A stretch of DNA of 64,000 nucleotides from a virus: positions 63,506-127,505 of IMG/VR virus record IMGVR_UViG_3300037499_000265. One strand, given 5' to 3'. The position numbers were made by a program, and so were the translations under genes. Below are positions 8,087 through 52,761 of the stretch, one piece after another; within the stretch, counting starts at the first letter, position 1; every line of letters begins with the position of its first letter. Below the pieces are notes generated by a model. It worked only from the letters and a program-made list of their open reading frames with translations. It was not told the DNA's origin and searched no databases.

Positions 8087-8548
8087 TCAACTCATGGCGA
8101 TTCGAAGGGCTTTGGTCAGGTACTCCTGGGCTGGACTCCCAGGATGTCTGACTCGCTTCAAATAGACAACTCCGCCCGCCTTCACCCAGTAGAAACGCAG
8201 TCGCGAGGCTCGGCGAGGCACGATCGGATATACGCCTCGCCCGCCGTGGACTCCGGTGCCCTCATGATGGAAGATGGCATAGCCGACGATCCGTCCGGTC
8301 GGATTGGCCCCAGCATGTGCCTCGACGTCGCGGTTCGGGGCGAACCGGTGCACGACTCGCAGGCTGCGAGCCAGCCGACCGCTACCGGACCGGCTGGAGA
8401 CGCCGGCGTACTTCTTGCCGATGAACCCACGACCGAGATTCACCGTACGGTCCGCGATGCTGTCGATGTGCCTGCCGACCGGACCCGGCCACGACTTGAA
8501 CACGTAGGTGAAAGCTTGTTCGTGCCAGACCCAGATCAGCTCGGCCAT
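8087..8548 (-). CDS. HK97 gp10-like neck / tail completion protein
   Basis: The start is re-called at ATG 8548 (TGATG overlap with the upstream stop). Motifs: SGRLARSL, YAIFHHEGTG, VRHPGSPAQEYL. Confidence 0.75.
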   Translation of the reverse strand: MAELIWVWHEQAFTYVFKSWPGPVGRHIDSIADRTVNLGRGFIGKKYAGVSSRSGSGRLARSLRVVHRFAPNRDVEAHAGANPTGRIVGYAIFHHEGTGVHGGRGVYPIVPRRASRLRFYWVKAGGVVYLKRVRHPGSPAQEYLTKALRIAMS

Positions 8549-9048
8549 CAGTGCAGCGCGATCGAGGCGAGGAGCCTGGTGGCGTAGTTGTCGCCCTGCG
8601 GCGCGAGGAACTGGATGCTGGCAACGATATGACCCCACCGGTCGCCGATCCGCTTGGCCACCGCCCCTCTGAGTACGGCGGAGTCCTCGCTGGCCTGCTG
8701 GACCTGAGCGGTGAGTATGGCCCTCGGTACGACGCCATTGCTACCGGGTTTGGCGGCGCAACGGATGATGTCGGCATACAGGTTGACAGTCCAGGCCGGC
8801 AACGAATGGTCGTCGTACTGACCGATCCCTAATGGCAGGGCCTCGGGGATTCCGGTGTTCATCGGCGCCAACGCCACCACGACCGAGGGACATGCGTGGA
8901 CGGTCTCGACCATGTCAAGATACTGCGACTCCGGGAGCTCGACATCGAGATCGTCGGCAGCTTCGTTGATGAACGTCAGCAGCCGATCAGCCTCGAAGAA
9001 GACCCGGTCCTTCTCGTCGGGCAGTACGGCGACGGGCTGGACAGTCAT
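8548..9048 (-). CDS. Tail terminator / head-tail joining protein (putative)
   Basis: 166 aa, located in the neck gene cluster and translationally coupled on both sides. Confidence 0.5.
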   Translation of the reverse strand: MTVQPVAVLPDEKDRVFFEADRLLTFINEAADDLDVELPESQYLDMVETVHACPSVVVALAPMNTGIPEALPLGIGQYDDHSLPAWTVNLYADIIRCAAKPGSNGVVPRAILTAQVQQASEDSAVLRGAVAKRIGDRWGHIVASIQFLAPQGDNYATRLLASIALH

Positions 9049-14337: not shown

Positions 14338-16386
14338 TCAACTGATGCTCAACGGAATGTCAACGGCGTCGCCACCGAAGACGACGCGAATCTTGTCGAA
14401 TGTGATCGGTCCGACTCTGGACACCATATCGTCCATCGATACCGTATCGCGCCCATACGCGAGTGTCATATGAGGCACCCATGGATCGAACTGGGGTGGG
14501 ATCTCTGGGGCTGCCACCTCGGCCCTGGCCCGGTGAAGGTCCTCTTCAATGATGCTATGGACCCACGACAGCTCGTTGGTGTCGCCGATGGCGAGCACCC
14601 AGGCGGCGTCATCGCCGGCGTCGGGATTCCACAGGTTTGCCCCGAACACCTTCGCCTCGATCGTCGCCCCGTTGTCCAGATCGGATGAGATCACATCTCC
14701 AACAGTGGTCTTGACCCTGTTCGCAAGTCCAGCACGCTGTTCTGGCGTCCATGCGTCAGCATCCCCCAGGAAGAACAGAGTCAGGTGCAACTCCTCAGCA
14801 GACTCCCCACCCTCAATCACTAGACGTTCAGTATCTTCGGTGGTCGGCAGCAGGGCGATCATCCCACCGGTAGAAGTTGCCGCCGAGGCCTGCAGGGCGA
14901 ACGGTCGCTTGGTGATCGACGCTTTGAGTGTGCTGACACCCCGTCGATGAGCCTTGTCGCCGGTGTACATGCCGGTCATCTGCTTGTGCCGGAGCTGGCA
15001 GTAACCGGCTGCGCGAGGACCCAGATACTTGAACAGCTGACGATAGCACCGGCGCCAATCGCCATGTACACCCCAGCGGATCTTCAACGCGCCCTTGCCA
15101 CGGGTCCAGTAGCGACGGAGCCGGATCGCGCCAGGGTGGTACTTGCCGAGCGCCTCGCCCGGTCCGGCCGCGATCAGGCTCGGCTCGCGGTTCACGCCGT
15201 CCAGAGCGGTCTGGTACAACTCCCGGCGAGCCTTCAGCGCCGCCCAGTCCCGGAAGGTCTCGATGTCGGACACCAACGCCCGGTCCTTACGCCGACGGTC
15301 AGTCTTGGTGTCGTAGTCCTCGTCTTCATCATCATCATCATCGTCGTCGTCGTCGTCGTCGGTGTGGTACGCCCCGACCATGGCGATGACCTCGCCGAAC
15401 GTCCGGTCCATGGCGGCGGTGAAACCGTAGACATCCGGCAGATCGACGAGGCTGTCAGACGCCACCATGGTCGATGGTATGTAAATCGAACCAAAGTCGA
15501 TACTGTCGGCCCGCTCGAGCGCGTCTGCGGCGAGAGCCTCGTCCAGAAGGACCAGTCGAGGCCGCTCGAGCAGTTCTGCCGGTTCCCACCCGCCGGCGGC
15601 CCGGATAGACACCTCCGGACCGGGCTCGATACGAAGGACGGACCAGACCGCGGTGTCGTCGATATCGTCCACCGCGGCCGCGACGATCGAAGTCTCGACG
15701 TCATCGGGAAAGGCCGTCACGGTCATCCCGTCCGGCAAGAACATCAACGGGTCGCTGTAGACGAGCAGCAGCTTGTCACCGGATTTGACCGCTGCGACGA
15801 TCGCGGCGAGCATCCCCGAATCCGGTTCGACCGCCGGGTACGAACGCAGCACGGCCGCCTCAACGGCCTGCCACTCACGCTGGTCCGGATCCCATCGCTC
15901 GTACGAAGAGTCCTTGTTCCGGACCAGGTCTGTGACGATGTCCTCGTCCCCGGCCGCGCACAGCCCGAGATACGCGAAGGTATCCGGGTCGTAGGAGATC
16001 GAAGCGAGCAGGCCCTCATTCTCACGCTCGATCTGCTTGCCCAGCGAGGCCCGGAGGGACTCGCTCCACTGCCGGATAAGGTCCCCACCCGCGAGACTGG
16101 ACAGCACGAGGTCCCGGCTCGGATAGCCGCCCTCCCCCGGATTCCAGCCGGGGAGATGCTCGGTCGTCGGAGACACCTCGTCGACCAGGGTTGACAGACT
16201 CTCGACCTCGGATAGGTCCAGCCCGCTGCCGGAGGCCAGCATCGCCGCGGCGCGCTGATAGGGCTCGGGAACATTGACGTCGTAGGCCTTCGTCCAGCGC
16301 ACGCCCTGCAAGACCTCGGCGACGACACCGGCCGGAACCGGATACGTCCGCAGAGACCCTGTGGAGACGGCGATGACCTCAGACAC
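14338..16386 (-). CDS. Multidomain head-morphogenesis-region protein with a C-terminal 2H phosphoesterase
   Basis: Two HxT motifs (EELHLTLFFLG, WVPHMTLAYG). A central LRRYWTRGKGALKIRWG..GDWRRC..YCQLRHKQMTG domain and a poly-Asp linker are also present. Confidence 0.8.
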   Translation of the reverse strand: MSEVIAVSTGSLRTYPVPAGVVAEVLQGVRWTKAYDVNVPEPYQRAAAMLASGSGLDLSEVESLSTLVDEVSPTTEHLPGWNPGEGGYPSRDLVLSSLAGGDLIRQWSESLRASLGKQIERENEGLLASISYDPDTFAYLGLCAAGDEDIVTDLVRNKDSSYERWDPDQREWQAVEAAVLRSYPAVEPDSGMLAAIVAAVKSGDKLLLVYSDPLMFLPDGMTVTAFPDDVETSIVAAAVDDIDDTAVWSVLRIEPGPEVSIRAAGGWEPAELLERPRLVLLDEALAADALERADSIDFGSIYIPSTMVASDSLVDLPDVYGFTAAMDRTFGEVIAMVGAYHTDDDDDDDDDDDEDEDYDTKTDRRRKDRALVSDIETFRDWAALKARRELYQTALDGVNREPSLIAAGPGEALGKYHPGAIRLRRYWTRGKGALKIRWGVHGDWRRCYRQLFKYLGPRAAGYCQLRHKQMTGMYTGDKAHRRGVSTLKASITKRPFALQASAATSTGGMIALLPTTEDTERLVIEGGESAEELHLTLFFLGDADAWTPEQRAGLANRVKTTVGDVISSDLDNGATIEAKVFGANLWNPDAGDDAAWVLAIGDTNELSWVHSIIEEDLHRARAEVAAPEIPPQFDPWVPHMTLAYGRDTVSMDDMVSRVGPITFDKIRVVFGGDAVDIPLSIS

Positions 16387-35331: not shown

Positions 35332-35396
35332 GCCTAGGACGGTACAGCCGTACGCGCGTCATAGCGCACCTAGGCACTCGGTCGGAGGTACCGACC
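35332..35396 (+). repeat. Intergenic three-stem element, copy 1, plus downstream pentaloop hairpin
   Basis: GCCTAGG...GTACGCGCGTCATAGCGCACCTAGGCAC. Confidence 0.8.
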
Positions 35397-36064: not shown

Positions 36065-36122
36065 GTTATCGGGTTATCTAGTTCGGATGTACCGAACTAC
36101 CCGGATAGGAAAGGATCACATC

Positions 36123-39055: not shown

Positions 39056-39260
39056 CCCGTACGGCATCCCCGGACTGGAACGGTGCGAAGACTGTCGTAA
39101 GGTCTGCATCTGTCCTGGACCGGAGTGCCAGTGCATGATCATCGATGCGGCCGCTGCCGTGTTGCTATGCCACTCATGCACCGACGTTCGCGACCATGGG
39201 TTGACGCCCTGGTCACAACTTGATACTGTCTTACCTACCAGGTCGGACGTGCCGGCCTAG
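39048..39260 (+). CDS. Cys-rich small protein
   Basis: CEDC..VCIC...CQC...CHSC; its 3' end overlaps the next promoter. Confidence 0.45.
   Translation: MPDPYGIPGLERCEDCRKVCICPGPECQCMIIDAAAAVLLCHSCTDVRDHGLTPWSQLDTVLPTRSDVPA
39201..39229 (+). promoter_or_regulatory. Promoter TTGACG-N17-TACTGT
   Basis: Family consensus; its leader is shared with 41114-41148. Confidence 0.8.
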
Positions 39261-39276: not shown

Positions 39277-39927
39277 ATGTCCCTACCGTTCACCATCACC
39301 CCGGGCCGCCAGTCGCCAACTGGCCGCGCTCACTGGCTCGACATCGCCTTTCACGACGGCCGGAAGGTCACCGGCAACGCCCGAATGGCATCTCACGTCA
39401 ACACCGACACTCACCCGGGCAACCACGACGAACCGCCGAGACACGTTTTCGTGCTCGACCTCTCGCCCACCCTGGTCGACTCAAACGGCAACACGGTCTA
39501 CCGCACCGCCGACCCTGACGCCGATGAGATCCAGGCCATGCACGCGGTCATCGCCCACCCGGTACGCGTCAACGGTGGCGCCTACCGCGGCACTCTCTAC
39601 ATCGAACGCGGCTACGACTCAGCCGCCGGCCGCCACATCGAGCCCGGCTCACACTGGTACCCCGGCGCCTGGACGTGGCGCGTGGCATACTCGTCCATCG
39701 AGCGCCTGGACGGCCCCAAGGTGACCGATGCCGCACGCTCGACCCTGCACGACCTGGCTCACCAGCTCGCCGAGACTCTCGGCACTCCCGAGCGCCTGCA
39801 CGATGACCGTGTGAAAGACGCTCAGTACAAGCACACCGAGGCCGTAGAGGCCGAGCGCAAGGCTCAACAACGCGCAAGCGAGACCTGGCAGCTCCTCTCC
39901 GCGCTGACGAATCCCCACAAGTCCTGA
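39277..39927 (+). CDS. Hypothetical protein with a C-terminal coiled coil
   Basis: Start re-called at ATG 39277 after a CGGAG RBS. Confidence 0.7.
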   Translation: MSLPFTITPGRQSPTGRAHWLDIAFHDGRKVTGNARMASHVNTDTHPGNHDEPPRHVFVLDLSPTLVDSNGNTVYRTADPDADEIQAMHAVIAHPVRVNGGAYRGTLYIERGYDSAAGRHIEPGSHWYPGAWTWRVAYSSIERLDGPKVTDAARSTLHDLAHQLAETLGTPERLHDDRVKDAQYKHTEAVEAERKAQQRASETWQLLSALTNPHKS

Positions 39928-39930
39928 CCC

Positions 39931-39960
39931 TGTCGCCGTGTCCGTCGTGACACGGCGACA
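39931..39960. terminator. Perfect 12-bp hairpin directly 5' of the tRNA-like RNA
   Basis: TGTCGCCGTGTC-CGTCGT-GACACGGCGACA; no U-tract. Confidence 0.5.
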
Positions 39961-39962
39961 AA

Positions 39963-40036
39963 GGCCCCGTATCTCAAATGGCAAGAGAGACCCGAGAACA
40001 GGGGTCTATATGCCGGTTCGAGTCCGGTCGGGGTCA
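39963..40036 (+). ncRNA. tRNA-like RNA with a non-canonical anticodon loop
   Basis: Acceptor GGCCCCG/CGGGGTC, D-arm TCTC/GAGA with GG, T-arm GCCGG-TTCGAGT-CCGGT. The anticodon arm GACCC-GAGAACAG-GGGTC lacks the Y32-U33 pattern. Confidence 0.75.
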
Positions 40037-40077
40037 CTGGAGAGCCGGACGTACCGGCTCGAAGGAGGGTAACCATC

Positions 40078-40179
40078 ATGGCCCACCAGCTCATCGCAAC
40101 CGCTCTACTGGCCATCGGCGGGGCGACCCCCGTCGTCATCGTGGCCAGAATGCTCCACGACCTGATCAGGAGGTACTGA
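40078..40179 (+). CDS. 33-aa TM peptide (missing from the track)
   Basis: AAGGAGG RBS; MAHQLIATALLAIGGATPVVIVARMLHDLIRRY. Confidence 0.55.
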   Translation: MAHQLIATALLAIGGATPVVIVARMLHDLIRRY

Positions 40180-40182
40180 ACC

Positions 40183-40887
40183 ATGACTAAGACGATCACA
40201 CTGCCCGAACTGAACGCCGATGTACTCACCTGGTCCGACGACTACGGCCACGCCCGCGTCCATGTGGCACACGGTGAGTACGTCTATCGGGTGACAGTCC
40301 AGCGCGACACCTACCCGGAACCGCCCGATGGCGACTACCTGGCACCAATGGTCTACCTGTCGGATGAGTACCGGCAGTCGTACGAGCACGCCGACGACGT
40401 CTATCGGGCATGGGAGTATTTCCGGCATGTGCATCGACACGCTGGCCGTCTTTGCCTTTTCGATCCTTACGACCTGTTGGCCCGGTACCTCCGGATCTAC
40501 TACGGCACGACCGTGGTCGAGTTCGCATCGCATCTCGGCTACAGCGGTCCGGCCGGCGTGTTCTTCGACACCGCCGAATGGCGAGAGCTCACCGGCTGGC
40601 ATCGAGACCCGGGAGAGATCCCCGGCGCCGGTGGCAACCCCGCGGCCGAATCCCGGTCGGTCTGGCATTCCTACGCCGATGGCGACGTCTACGGCGTGAT
40701 CGTTGAACGCCGAACGACCGGCATCACGACATGGGCCGATGGCCGAGTCGAGAGCGTCACCGAGTGGAACGAGCCGGACGACGATATCTGGTCGATATGG
40801 GGATACTACGGCGACGACGAGATCCCCTACATGCTCGCCGAGCACGCCACCGCGTGGATCGAGAACGACAAGCCGAAGGGACTCTGA
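40183..40887 (+). CDS. Hypothetical protein
   Basis: AGGAGG RBS; WxxYADGDVYGVIVE...WSIWGYYG motif. Confidence 0.75.
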   Translation: MTKTITLPELNADVLTWSDDYGHARVHVAHGEYVYRVTVQRDTYPEPPDGDYLAPMVYLSDEYRQSYEHADDVYRAWEYFRHVHRHAGRLCLFDPYDLLARYLRIYYGTTVVEFASHLGYSGPAGVFFDTAEWRELTGWHRDPGEIPGAGGNPAAESRSVWHSYADGDVYGVIVERRTTGITTWADGRVESVTEWNEPDDDIWSIWGYYGDDEIPYMLAEHATAWIENDKPKGL

Positions 40888-40891
40888 GTCC

Positions 40892-41083
40892 ATGGACGAG
40901 TACACCGAAACCCTGTTGACCACCGTCCAGGCCCGACGTTCCGACGACTCTGTCAAGACAGACCTAGAACTGATCTGCACGCAGTGCCCGGACGACGCCA
41001 GACCATTGTGTGACATCGAGCACGACGACACCCTCTCTGTACTGGTGGCCGTCGCACTGCACCATGCCCGAACCGAGCACTAG
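40892..41083 (+). CDS. Small Zn-binding hypothetical protein
   Basis: LICTQC...LCDIEHDDTLSVL...HH. Confidence 0.6.
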   Translation: MDEYTETLLTTVQARRSDDSVKTDLELICTQCPDDARPLCDIEHDDTLSVLVAVALHHARTEH

Positions 41084-41109
41084 ACATCCCGGTACAAACC
41101 TGCTACTGT
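41081..41109 (+). promoter_or_regulatory. Promoter TAGACA-N17-TACTGT
   Basis: Family consensus. Confidence 0.8.
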
Positions 41110-50649: not shown

Positions 50650-52761
50650 GTGGAACAAATCAGCAAGAAGCTCATGAACTGGGCGTCCATCCTGGAGCCG
50701 AACACCCGCGAGCAGGCCGAGCGGACCGCCAGCATGCCGTTCATCCACCCGCACCTGGCGCTCATGCCGGATGCTCATCTCGGCAAGGGCGCCACAGTCG
50801 GCTCAGTGATCCCGACGCTCGGCGCGATCATTCCCGCCGCAGTCGGCGTGGACATCGGCTGCGTCGATGCCGACACCGAGTTCCTGTCTCCAACCGGATG
50901 GAAGCGCATAGCCGACTACGCCGGTGAGCCGGTCATGGGATACGACCCTGCCTCCGGCCTGGGCGAGTTCGTTCAGCCGTTGCAGTTCGTCAAGCGGCCG
51001 TCCTCGGGGTTCTGGCACTTCAAGACGAAGTACGGGATCGACCAGAAACTCAGTCCTGATCACCGTGTGCTCGGATACAAGATCGTGGGCCGTGATCGCC
51101 GTCGAGAGCAGGTCGTGGTCAGTGCTGCCGAGTTGGCCAAGAAGCACGCCTGGCTAAAGCTCGGAGCCAAGTTCGAGTTCATCACGACGTTCACTCCTCT
51201 CCGAAGTGTCAGCCTGCCACTGACCGATCCTGAGATCCGCGTGATGGTCATGGTGATGGCGGATGGAGCCTTCAACTCACACCGTGAGCATTCCACGCGC
51301 GTCACCCTGCGTTTCAAGAAGGAGCGGAAGATCGCTCGCTCGGTTGAACTTCTGGATGCGGCTGCCATCGAGTACTCCAAGCGCCAGACGTCGGACGGTG
51401 CGACCGCAATCTCATTCGACGCGCCGATGCGGACCAAGACCTACCAGGATTTCTGGAACGCCAGCCTGGACCAGATCACAGTGATCGCTGATGAAGTGCT
51501 GCACTGGGATGGTCATCTGCCTGACCGTGTGTTCTTCACGCGTGACGAGCGGTCTGCCGACTTCATCCAGTACGTCTTCACGGCGACCGGTCGACGCGCT
51601 GTGAAGCGCGCAGACGTCCATCCGGACGGGAAGACTGACTACCGGGTATTCGCTCATGAACGCATCGCAGTCGGCCTAGCTGGTGCGCCCAAGTCGCCTG
51701 TCCAGTGGGTCGAGTCCACGGACGGACACGAGTACTGTTTCACGATGCCAAGCGGCTTCTGGGTCATGCGTCGCGGCGGCAACGTGGTCATGACAGGGAA
51801 CTGCGGCATGATCGCTGTACGGACGCAGTACGTCCTAGGCGACCTCGACGGGCTGGACCGATCGGCGCTGCGGGAGTCGATCGAGCAGGCCATCCCGCTC
51901 TCGGCCGGCAACTACAACCAACACGTGACGAACAGCGCCGAACCTCGAGTGGTCGCGTTGGCGGACGACGCGAGGAAGGCCAGGTTCGATCCGACGAGCT
52001 ACGCGGGCAACTGGGACCTCCAACTCGGCACGCTCGGCTCCGGCAACCACTTCATCGAGGTCACCGTCGACGAGAGTGATCAGGTGTGGCTGTTCCTGCA
52101 CTCCGGATCGCGAGGCATCGGCAACAAGATCGCGCAGCGGCACATCAAGATCGCCAAGAGCCTGTGCGAGAAGTGGTGGATCCCCCTGCCCGATCCCGAT
52201 CTGGCCTACCTGGTCGAGGGCACCGACGAGTTCTGGACCTACATCCGAGAACTCCGGTGGGCGCAGAAGTTCGCCCTGTACAACCGCGAGGAGATGATGG
52301 ACCGGGTCGTGCAGTGCTTCGAGGAGTGGCTCGGCAACGACGTCGACGAGCGCGAGCGGATCAACTGCCACCACAACTTCACTCAGAAGGAACGCCACTG
52401 GGGCAAGGATGTGTGGGTGTCTCGGAAGGGTGCGATCTCGGCCAAGACCGGTGAGCTGGGCCTGATCCCAGGCTCGATGGGCACCGCGTCTTATGTGGTC
52501 GAAGGGCTCGGCAACCGGCTGTCGCTCGACTCGAGTCCACACGGCGCCGGCCGGAACTACTCCCGCTCGAAGGCGCGCAAGGCGTTCACTCACGATCAGC
52601 TCCGCGAGCGCATGGCAGGGATCGAGTGGCGGGACTCCGAAGCGTTCCTGGACGAGATCCCGGACGCCTACAAGCCGGTGGAACAGGTGATGGCCGACGC
52701 GATCGACCTCGTCAACACCAAGCACGTCTTGCACCAGATCATTAACGTAAAAGGGGAGTAG
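50650..52761 (+). CDS. rtcB: RtcB RNA ligase interrupted by an intein
   Basis: MPDAHLGKGATVG, AVGVDIG|CGM, LGTLGSGNHFIE, LHSGSRG, HHN, RKGA, IPGSMG, SPHGAGR, DEIPDAYK. Confidence 0.95.
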   Translation: MEQISKKLMNWASILEPNTREQAERTASMPFIHPHLALMPDAHLGKGATVGSVIPTLGAIIPAAVGVDIGCVDADTEFLSPTGWKRIADYAGEPVMGYDPASGLGEFVQPLQFVKRPSSGFWHFKTKYGIDQKLSPDHRVLGYKIVGRDRRREQVVVSAAELAKKHAWLKLGAKFEFITTFTPLRSVSLPLTDPEIRVMVMVMADGAFNSHREHSTRVTLRFKKERKIARSVELLDAAAIEYSKRQTSDGATAISFDAPMRTKTYQDFWNASLDQITVIADEVLHWDGHLPDRVFFTRDERSADFIQYVFTATGRRAVKRADVHPDGKTDYRVFAHERIAVGLAGAPKSPVQWVESTDGHEYCFTMPSGFWVMRRGGNVVMTGNCGMIAVRTQYVLGDLDGLDRSALRESIEQAIPLSAGNYNQHVTNSAEPRVVALADDARKARFDPTSYAGNWDLQLGTLGSGNHFIEVTVDESDQVWLFLHSGSRGIGNKIAQRHIKIAKSLCEKWWIPLPDPDLAYLVEGTDEFWTYIRELRWAQKFALYNREEMMDRVVQCFEEWLGNDVDERERINCHHNFTQKERHWGKDVWVSRKGAISAKTGELGLIPGSMGTASYVVEGLGNRLSLDSSPHGAGRNYSRSKARKAFTHDQLRERMAGIEWRDSEAFLDEIPDAYKPVEQVMADAIDLVNTKHVLHQIINVKGE
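50860..51801 (+). mobile_element. 314-aa intein with a LAGLIDADG-type homing endonuclease
   Basis: Starts CVDADTEFLSPTGW and ends YCFTMPSGFWVMRRGGNVVMTGN before Cys+1. Internal VMVMADGAF and VLHWDGH blocks. Confidence 0.92.

Follow-up and report, generated by a model that had tools for sequence, protein, structure and literature searches.

RNase P and RNase Z recognize the acceptor/T-arm stack and the elbow of a tRNA, not its anticodon. The YrlA Y RNAs of bacteria and phages feature a non-decoding, tRNA-like domain that is bound by Ro/Rsr, is often linked to RtcB and displays a permuted topology with its ends within the Ro-binding stem. In frameshift-suppressor and quadruplet tRNAs, as well as in yeast mitochondrial tRNA-Thr(UAG), a U33 still precedes the anticodon and the codons that are targeted can be identified. 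RNase P is further known to cleave mRNAs and tRNA-like structures (review PMC11143913), and it makes the 3' end of the MALAT1 RNA by cutting at the tRNA-like mascRNA, immediately behind a stabilizing structure (PMC8457004). Here we describe a phage locus that, as read from its sequence, is a real, well-formed and non-decoding tRNA shape embedded in an operon, and that most plausibly serves as a tRNA-derived processing mark.

The source is an uncultured virus record with a complete genome of 127,505 bp, direct terminal repeats and ~62% G+C; the window, by which we mean the whole stretch of 64,000 nt analyzed here, corresponds to its bases 63506-127505. In terminase comparisons, the described phages that come nearest are the large Gordonia phages GMA2, Phendrix, GodonK, Sixama and Forza, together with the Actinomycetia phage DSL-LC01. 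Since even these terminases are only 48-54% identical at the amino acid level, the source phage is by this marker a large actinophage of a poorly sampled lineage.

The tRNA-shaped element and its anticodon loop

The locus comprises the following features, given in window coordinates:

39201-39229, + strand: promoter TTGACG-N17-TACTGT of the unit containing the element (consensus scan; alignment of the regions upstream of the hairpins)
39277-39927, + strand: upstream gene, 216 aa, family not matched, stop codon at 39925-39927
39931-39960, + strand: perfect 12-bp hairpin with a 6-nt loop and no U-tract (sequence and folds; not called as a terminator)
39963-40036, + strand: tRNA-shaped element, 74 nt (ARAGORN, Rfam tRNA, fold statistics and feature comparison)
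39994-40001, + strand: aberrant anticodon loop GAGAACAG, 8 nt (G32, A33, U-turn uridine absent)
40042-40060, + strand: CGG-ANGTR-CCG hairpin, 7 pairs, loop ACGTA, a recurrent gene-start element
40064-40068, + strand: Shine-Dalgarno sequence GGAGG of the next ORF (sequence)
40078-40179, + strand: hydrophobic 33-aa ORF MAHQLIATALLAIGGATPVVIVARMLHDLIRRY, preceded by a strong Shine-Dalgarno sequence and encoding a single hydrophobic segment
40183-40887, + strand: downstream gene, 234 aa, family not matched
41081-41109, + strand: next promoter, TAGACA-N17-TACTGT, start of the following unit (consensus scan)

ARAGORN calls a 75-nt tRNA-?(Phe|Val)(gaac) at 39963-40037, labeled as undetermined in identity and carrying a four-base 'anticodon'. 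Rfam RF00005 matches 39963-40036 with 37.8 bits (E 1.4e-6, gathering score 29), a match that is missed at default settings and needed relaxed filters, and whose alignment treats the anticodon arm as a local insertion and passes over it. The 74-nt cloverleaf proposed in a first-pass annotation of this DNA is confirmed, and its proposed distance of 12.6 kb from the tRNA cluster was measured as 12,592 nt from the cluster end (27371) to the start of the element. The acceptor stem comprises 7 bp (one G2.U71), the D stem 4 bp, the anticodon stem 5 bp (6 bp if A26-U44 is counted) and the T stem 5 bp (one G49.U65), amounting to 21 base pairs with 0 mismatches and 2 G.U pairs; the arms, previously described as perfect, are so in having no mismatches and are not so in containing the two wobble pairs. 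The elbow landmarks named in that annotation (T8, A14, G18G19, TTCGA) can all be read in the sequence, and the full set of elbow and core nucleotides is present (U8, A14, G18G19, G53-C61 and a T54/A58-type T-loop), with the T-loop TTCGAGT being common to 14 of 112 reference tRNAs. At the 3' end, the discriminator A at 40036 is followed by a C at 40037, CCA is not encoded, and there is no -1/73 pairing able to lengthen the acceptor stem. The fold is beyond chance (MFE z-score -3.8, with 0 of 200 shuffles folding equally well); the MFE structure, which retains the acceptor and anticodon stems, is more stable than the cloverleaf by 2.7 kcal/mol. Integration of a genomic island at the element was considered and rejected, the genome having no direct repeat of the element's 3' half.

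The departure from a normal tRNA is confined to the anticodon loop. In the reference set, which consists of 112 distinct tRNAs from the source phage and five relatives, a 7-nt loop, Y32 and R37 are each found in 112/112 and U33 in 111/112. The element breaks three of these rules, as G32 and A33 within 8 nt at 39994-40001 confirm the earlier description of an 8-nt loop lacking Y32 and U33. All of its other features fall in the normal range, including the discriminator A and the two G.U pairs, which are the modal number among the references, and the comparison reveals no damage outside the loop. A canonical loop would have to undergo no fewer than one insertion and two substitutions to become this one. 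The genome being a metagenome assembly, one could suspect that errors in assembly or sequencing have corrupted the loop of an otherwise normal tRNA, yet this is the kind of accident to which we would give hardly any credence: all three errors would have to fall within 8 nt, the loop is not a homopolymer, and removal of any one base still leaves A or G, never U, at position 33.

That the element is incapable of reading codons is well supported by its sequence and by the coding content of the genome. The three broken rules are ones to which 111-112 of the 112 references adhere, and no gene was found to need four-base reading, so that the earlier designation as non-decoding stands. It is important to note that 8-nt loops can decode, as exemplified by frameshift suppressors and by yeast mitochondrial tRNA-Thr (PMC7609411), and that ARAGORN itself proposes the anticodon gaac; the element could in principle use a four-base anticodon GAAC to read GUUC, or draw a triplet from its enlarged loop in the manner of the mitochondrial tRNA. 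We nevertheless consider any such unusual decoding very improbable, as U33 is absent and position 32 is a purine. Moreover, a crude genome-wide scan, based on ORFs and GC3, for +1 frame breaks at loop-complementary quadruplets returned a single candidate, which is an ordinary gene boundary, and none of the loop 4-mers has a complement in the 33-aa ORF that follows the element; on these two results, four-base decoding was rejected. A loop-complementary target of the kissing or specifier type was rejected as well, with 8-mer and 7-mer counts at about chance and no occurrence at a telling position.

As a separate observation, the four central loop bases GAAC (39997-40000) are the exact complement of GTTC (G53-T54-Psi55-C56, 40015-40018) in the element's own T-arm and in nearly all other T-arms; the chance that any 4-mer of an 8-nt loop complements the T-arm GTTC is ~2%, and no pairing in cis between the two is seen in the MFE fold. 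An undetermined tRNA with a four-base anticodon (tcta) was also encountered, as a chance match, in the unrelated viral contig IMGVR_UViG_3300004883_000002 (L049:7278-7350, - strand), where it lies 2.3 kb away from two tRNA-Met genes. In the Gordonia phages GMA2, Phendrix, Sixama and Forza, several tRNA-Leu genes called by ARAGORN (tag, caa, taa) are only 74-76 nt long and have a short variable loop in place of the long variable arm that is usual for bacterial tRNA-Leu.

The transcription unit and its junctions

Placing the element in its genomic context draws on three further sets of features:

Window sites 19531, 25904, 35046, 38421, 39201, 41081, 47258, 50124, 52770, 56087, 57996 and 62236: promoter sites
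Window sites 35085, 35383, 36084, 37171, 38461, 39244, 40046, 41124 and 50161, + strand: cores of nine copies of the CGG-ANGTR-CCG hairpin
Genome 12259, window 26188-27371 and window 39963: the nine tRNA-type genes, namely a lone tRNA-Met, a cluster of seven and the tRNA-like element

The phage promoter consensus T(T/A)GACA-N16-18-TAC(T/G/A)GT is sharp and occurs at 17 sites on the + strand and 1 site on the - strand of the whole genome, and the same genome scan reveals none before the structural genes on the - strand of the window. This distribution suggests early/middle units served by host RNA polymerase and late genes under separate control, and it is from such host-type promoters that the label 'early' for the element derives.

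Within its unit, the promoter at 39201 is followed by a hairpin, the gene at 39277-39927, the 12-bp hairpin, the dinucleotide AA and the tRNA-like element, and then by CTGGA, the hairpin at 40042-40060, GGAGG, the 33-aa ORF and the gene at 40183-40887. Two nucleotides separate the upstream hairpin from the 5' end of the element and 5 nt separate its 3' end from the downstream hairpin, in agreement with the earlier placement of the element between a perfect 12-bp hairpin (39931-39960) and an ANGUR hairpin (40042-40060). Between 39201 and 41081, the consensus scan finds no promoter, and nothing on the + strand resembles a terminator. Lacking its own promoter, and with no such site intervening, the element should be made only within the longer transcript that starts at 39201. 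The 33-aa ORF is translationally coupled to the next gene, and its product is probably a small membrane peptide. The flanking 216-aa and 234-aa proteins have no Pfam or PHROG match, and their AF2 models (pLDDT 73 and 78, respectively) yield no Foldseek match at E <= 0.001 and best VIA Z scores of 5.4 and 6.0, inside the tool's stated noise range.

The downstream hairpin belongs to a family of 10 + strand copies in the 35-50 kb part of the window and 12 in the genome; in 9 of those 10, a ribosome-binding site and a start codon follow. Five of the nine copies listed above lie directly behind promoters of the TTGACA-N17-TACTGT type (35046, 38421, 39201, 41081 and 50124), from which we deduce a 5' position in the primary transcripts. 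Three others sit behind large stem-loop elements without a promoter, the copies at 35383 and 37171 being preceded by a three-stem element and that at 36084 by a perfect 14-bp hairpin and an 11-nt linker; the remaining one (40046) follows the tRNA-like element. A hairpin belonging at RNA 5' ends, whether these arise by initiation or by processing, would be expected to show just such a distribution over promoters, stem-loops and a tRNA shape. The CGG-ANGTR-CCG hairpin could thus mark RNA 5' ends, or alternatively represent a palindromic operator at +1.

A second point of reference is the phage's lone canonical tRNA-Met(CAT), which also lies mid-operon, with promoters at genome positions 10971 and 25632. 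In its flanks (genome 12231-12400), a perfect 14-bp hairpin ends 5 nt upstream of the tRNA 5' end and another hairpin lies past the 3' end, so that the hairpin-tRNA-hairpin layout is the same as that of the tRNA-like element. Because the downstream hairpin recurs at gene starts and an upstream hairpin precedes tRNA-Met as well, the flanking hairpins are not private partners of the element. Separately, positions 1 and 72 of this tRNA-Met form a T opposite T mismatch; a 1-72 mismatch of such kind is seen in bacterial initiator tRNAs.

A C directly follows the discriminator in 111 of 113 tRNAs, the element included, and 98 of these carry the C only, with no full CCA. As the phage has no CCA-adding enzyme domain, all such tRNAs would depend on the host for maturation, and the shared C points to a common 3' maturation of the element and the other tRNAs.

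In light of these arrangements, our preferred reading, held tentatively and short of an even chance, is that the element is a tRNA-derived, non-decoding 'punctuation' site for RNase P and 3' processing that is kept by selection for this role. The polycistronic message from the 39201 promoter would include the element, which retains all shape cues (acceptor/T-arm stack, elbow, discriminator) and has lost codon reading; since RNase P and RNase Z ignore the anticodon, the transcript should be cut at both element ends. Host RNase P would cut at the 5' end, between A39962 and G39963, and an enzyme of the RNase Z type or exonucleases would generate the 3' cut after A40036 or C40037, splitting the transcript in two. 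The upstream message would then end in the 12-bp hairpin plus AA and resist 3' exonucleases, and the downstream message would start 5 nt before the CGG-ANGTR-CCG hairpin, much like the presumed promoter-made transcripts of the region, with the excised 74-nt RNA possibly persisting as a small, stable tRNA-like RNA. The tRNA shape, the aberrant loop, the lack of an own promoter or terminator, the flanking arrangement and its parallel at tRNA-Met are read from sequence patterns; from these we infer the transcription, both cleavages, the end protection and the selection for a processing role.

The earlier proposal of a processing signal for RNase P/Z finds anatomical support in this layout: the 7-bp acceptor stem and 5-bp T arm are intact with A73 in place, the consensus scans place the element inside a unit and give it neither a promoter nor a terminator, and stabilizing hairpins stand at both predicted RNA ends. 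The same layout, however, cannot separate a selected signal from a processed pseudogene, because any tRNA-shaped relic would be cut alike, and for this reason physical cutting is likelier than a selected processing role. Two further observations argue against such a role: the nearby junctions at 36084, 35383 and 37171 have no tRNA, so that one is not required there, and the element is a singleton in IMG/VR and, among the matches listed, in the metagenome and GTDB sets. Processing-dependent unmasking of the Shine-Dalgarno sequence was considered and rejected, its accessibility being unchanged (0.18-0.25).

Possible maintenance of the element and alternative roles

Searches for relatives at the DNA level returned no match in phage records for the 1-kb region and only generic T-arm matches for the element itself, and no exact T-arm/acceptor match in IMG/VR. 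The loop plus T-arm pattern has 4 matches in IMG/VR, none of them tRNA-shaped, and among at least 241 matches listed for the metagenome and GTDB sets there is none in which the motif forms an anticodon loop; the D-arm pattern is uninformative, matching tRNAs of several isotypes. No parent isotype for the element emerged among 113 distinct tRNAs. At the protein level, the upstream 216-aa protein has no match in IMG/VR and none in the metagenome scan with its family, the downstream 234-aa protein matches ten distant IMG/VR loci (24-36% identity) with no tRNA nearby, and tblastn with the flanking proteins in phages gives no or only distant matches. Protein homologs reach 58% (P0013, a homolog of the upstream protein) and 42-46% (P0002 and P0003).

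The closest relative, IMGVR_UViG_3300038406_000433, has an 85% identical terminase and is a 22.7-kb fragment that does not extend to the early region and hence to the element locus. At 8434-9046 of this contig lie orthologous tRNAs for Gln, Pro, Ser(GCT) and Ser(CGA), whose stems have changed in a compensatory manner. These differ from their source phage counterparts at 12% of positions, and a single pyrimidine swap at position 32 is the sole difference in their anticodon loops. The Glu-Tyr-Glu tRNA trio was not found in this fragment by either ARAGORN or Rfam, from which it follows that the content of the tRNA cluster turns over quickly. Given that the maintained orthologs are already 12% diverged, an unselected tRNA body should degrade quickly on that timescale.

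These comparisons bear directly on the main rival to the preferred processing role, a recently inactivated pseudogene, which we regard as a real though less probable prospect. In such a scenario, a lone tRNA laid out like tRNA-Met would have acquired the loop insertion and substitutions, perhaps in one complex event, and the relic would be processed incidentally, without selection. The singleton status of the element fits this scenario, as do the five distant relatives, which have no lone or odd tRNA, the junctions that do without one, and the tRNA-Met layout, by which the context is not specific to the mimic. Conversely, at least three changes would have accumulated within 8 nt with 42 paired and ~12 core positions left intact, and the divergence of the maintained tRNAs from those of the relative requires the relic to be very young. 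A toy neutral model assigns a probability of ~0.002 to three loop hits occurring before any disruptive hit elsewhere, a figure that carries selection bias, coming as it does from one sequence picked for looking odd. The argument made at first pass, that damage restricted to the loop suggests selection, is therefore reasonable in its direction and weakened by the way this single sequence was chosen.

The phage also encodes two RNA-related proteins:

50650-52761: RtcB RNA ligase, 703 aa, Pfam match in two stretches
14338-16386, - strand: 682-aa protein with a C-terminal 2'-5' RNA ligase/LigT-like domain

The split match and length of the RtcB protein are consistent with an insertion or intein. 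Together, the RtcB and LigT-like proteins resemble an RNA-repair capacity, in a phage that carries only 8 tRNAs.

A mimic acting in trans would be a decoy or sponge directed at some host factor able to read tRNA shape, such as a tRNA-targeting defence nuclease or a sensor, or would take part in phage RNA repair. The intact elbow and acceptor combined with a non-decoding loop would suit binding to tRNA-binding proteins while staying off the ribosome, the phage invests in tRNA biology (8 tRNAs, RtcB ligase, LigT-like domain), and phage tRNAs have been proposed to counter host anticodon nucleases (PMC10264068). We nonetheless deem a trans-acting mimic unlikely. Its loop resembles no canonical anticodon loop and would make it a poor substrate mimic for anticodon nucleases. 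Such nucleases read the identity of the loop. No partner protein was found either, the flanking proteins having no family or fold match, and a domain search of the genome reveals no TROVE, FemAB, Leu/Phe-transferase or CCA-adding enzyme. The decoy roles suggested in the first-pass annotation, for nucleases, sensors or synthetases, are thus left without support, and the ideas of a non-ribosomal aminoacyl donor or a Y RNA were rejected on the missing domains.

Combining the two activities, a selected non-decoding mimic might serve both as a cis module for RNase P/Z cutting and as a trans decoy or sponge directed at a tRNA-binding defence factor or sensor of the host, a compound proposition that we rate as rather improbable. 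In cis, the module with its built-in end-protecting hairpins would replace a promoter in the early operon, as a counterpart of mascRNA, and in trans the purine-rich loop would keep the released RNA off the ribosome.

Should selection keep the element, as the preferred processing role requires, the phage would be retaining a tRNA purely for its shape, in a mascRNA-like module within a bacterial virus; no description of such a processing module in phages was found in the literature searched. The locus would then offer, through mutants of the loop, the acceptor stem and the hairpins, a simple genetic handle on how large actinophages shape their early polycistronic messages, and would bring a non-decoding class into the discussion of why tRNAs occur in phage genomes. 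Were the element just a young pseudogene, it would be ordinary, yet the lone tRNAs of this phage would still sit at operon junctions between hairpins.

Comparison with described systems

Of the described tRNA-like RNAs, those of MALAT1 and MEN-beta come closest to the element, being non-decoding and located within a longer transcript (PMC8457004). As proposed for the element, the RNase P 5' cut at mascRNA makes the 3' end of the upstream RNA and a small RNA is released, with a stabilizing structure directly upstream of the cut, which in the phage is a predicted one. The differences are nonetheless considerable: mascRNA belongs to a eukaryotic nuclear system, its stabilizer is a triple helix and the mimic itself is reduced to 58-61 nt (PMC8457004), whereas the element, lying between two protein-coding cistrons, forms a complete cloverleaf of 74 nt, with a hairpin as the stabilizer and cleavage predicted from shape. 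In tRNA punctuation, as in mitochondria and in bacterial or phage operons, tRNA shapes between cistrons likewise act as RNase P/Z marks, RNase P also being known to cleave operon mRNAs (references in PMC11143913), and the tRNA-Met of the source phage occupies such a punctuating position; punctuating tRNAs are, however, normally functional decoders, and the element's loop is incompatible with decoding.

The remaining systems share fewer features. The YrlA RNAs are permuted, in contrast to the normal tRNA topology of the element, which has no Rfam Y-RNA match and lies in a genome without a TROVE protein. Frameshift-suppressor and quadruplet tRNAs (sufD, SufB2, sufJ and engineered qtRNAs) resemble it in having an 8-nt loop on a normal body, as does yeast mitochondrial tRNA-Thr(UAG) in its 8-nt anticodon loop (PMC7609411), and it differs from all of these by G32, A33 and the lack of a target site in the genome scan. 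Phage tRNAs with loop substitutions proposed to evade anticodon nucleases share an altered loop and accompanying RNA-repair genes, but appear to remain functional decoders (PMC10264068), unlike the element with its non-canonical loop. Like tRNA pseudogenes, finally, the element is tRNA-derived, flagged as undetermined by tRNA finders and a singleton; pseudogenes are usually damaged across their arms, whereas here 21 pairs without a mismatch and an intact core surround the one altered loop.
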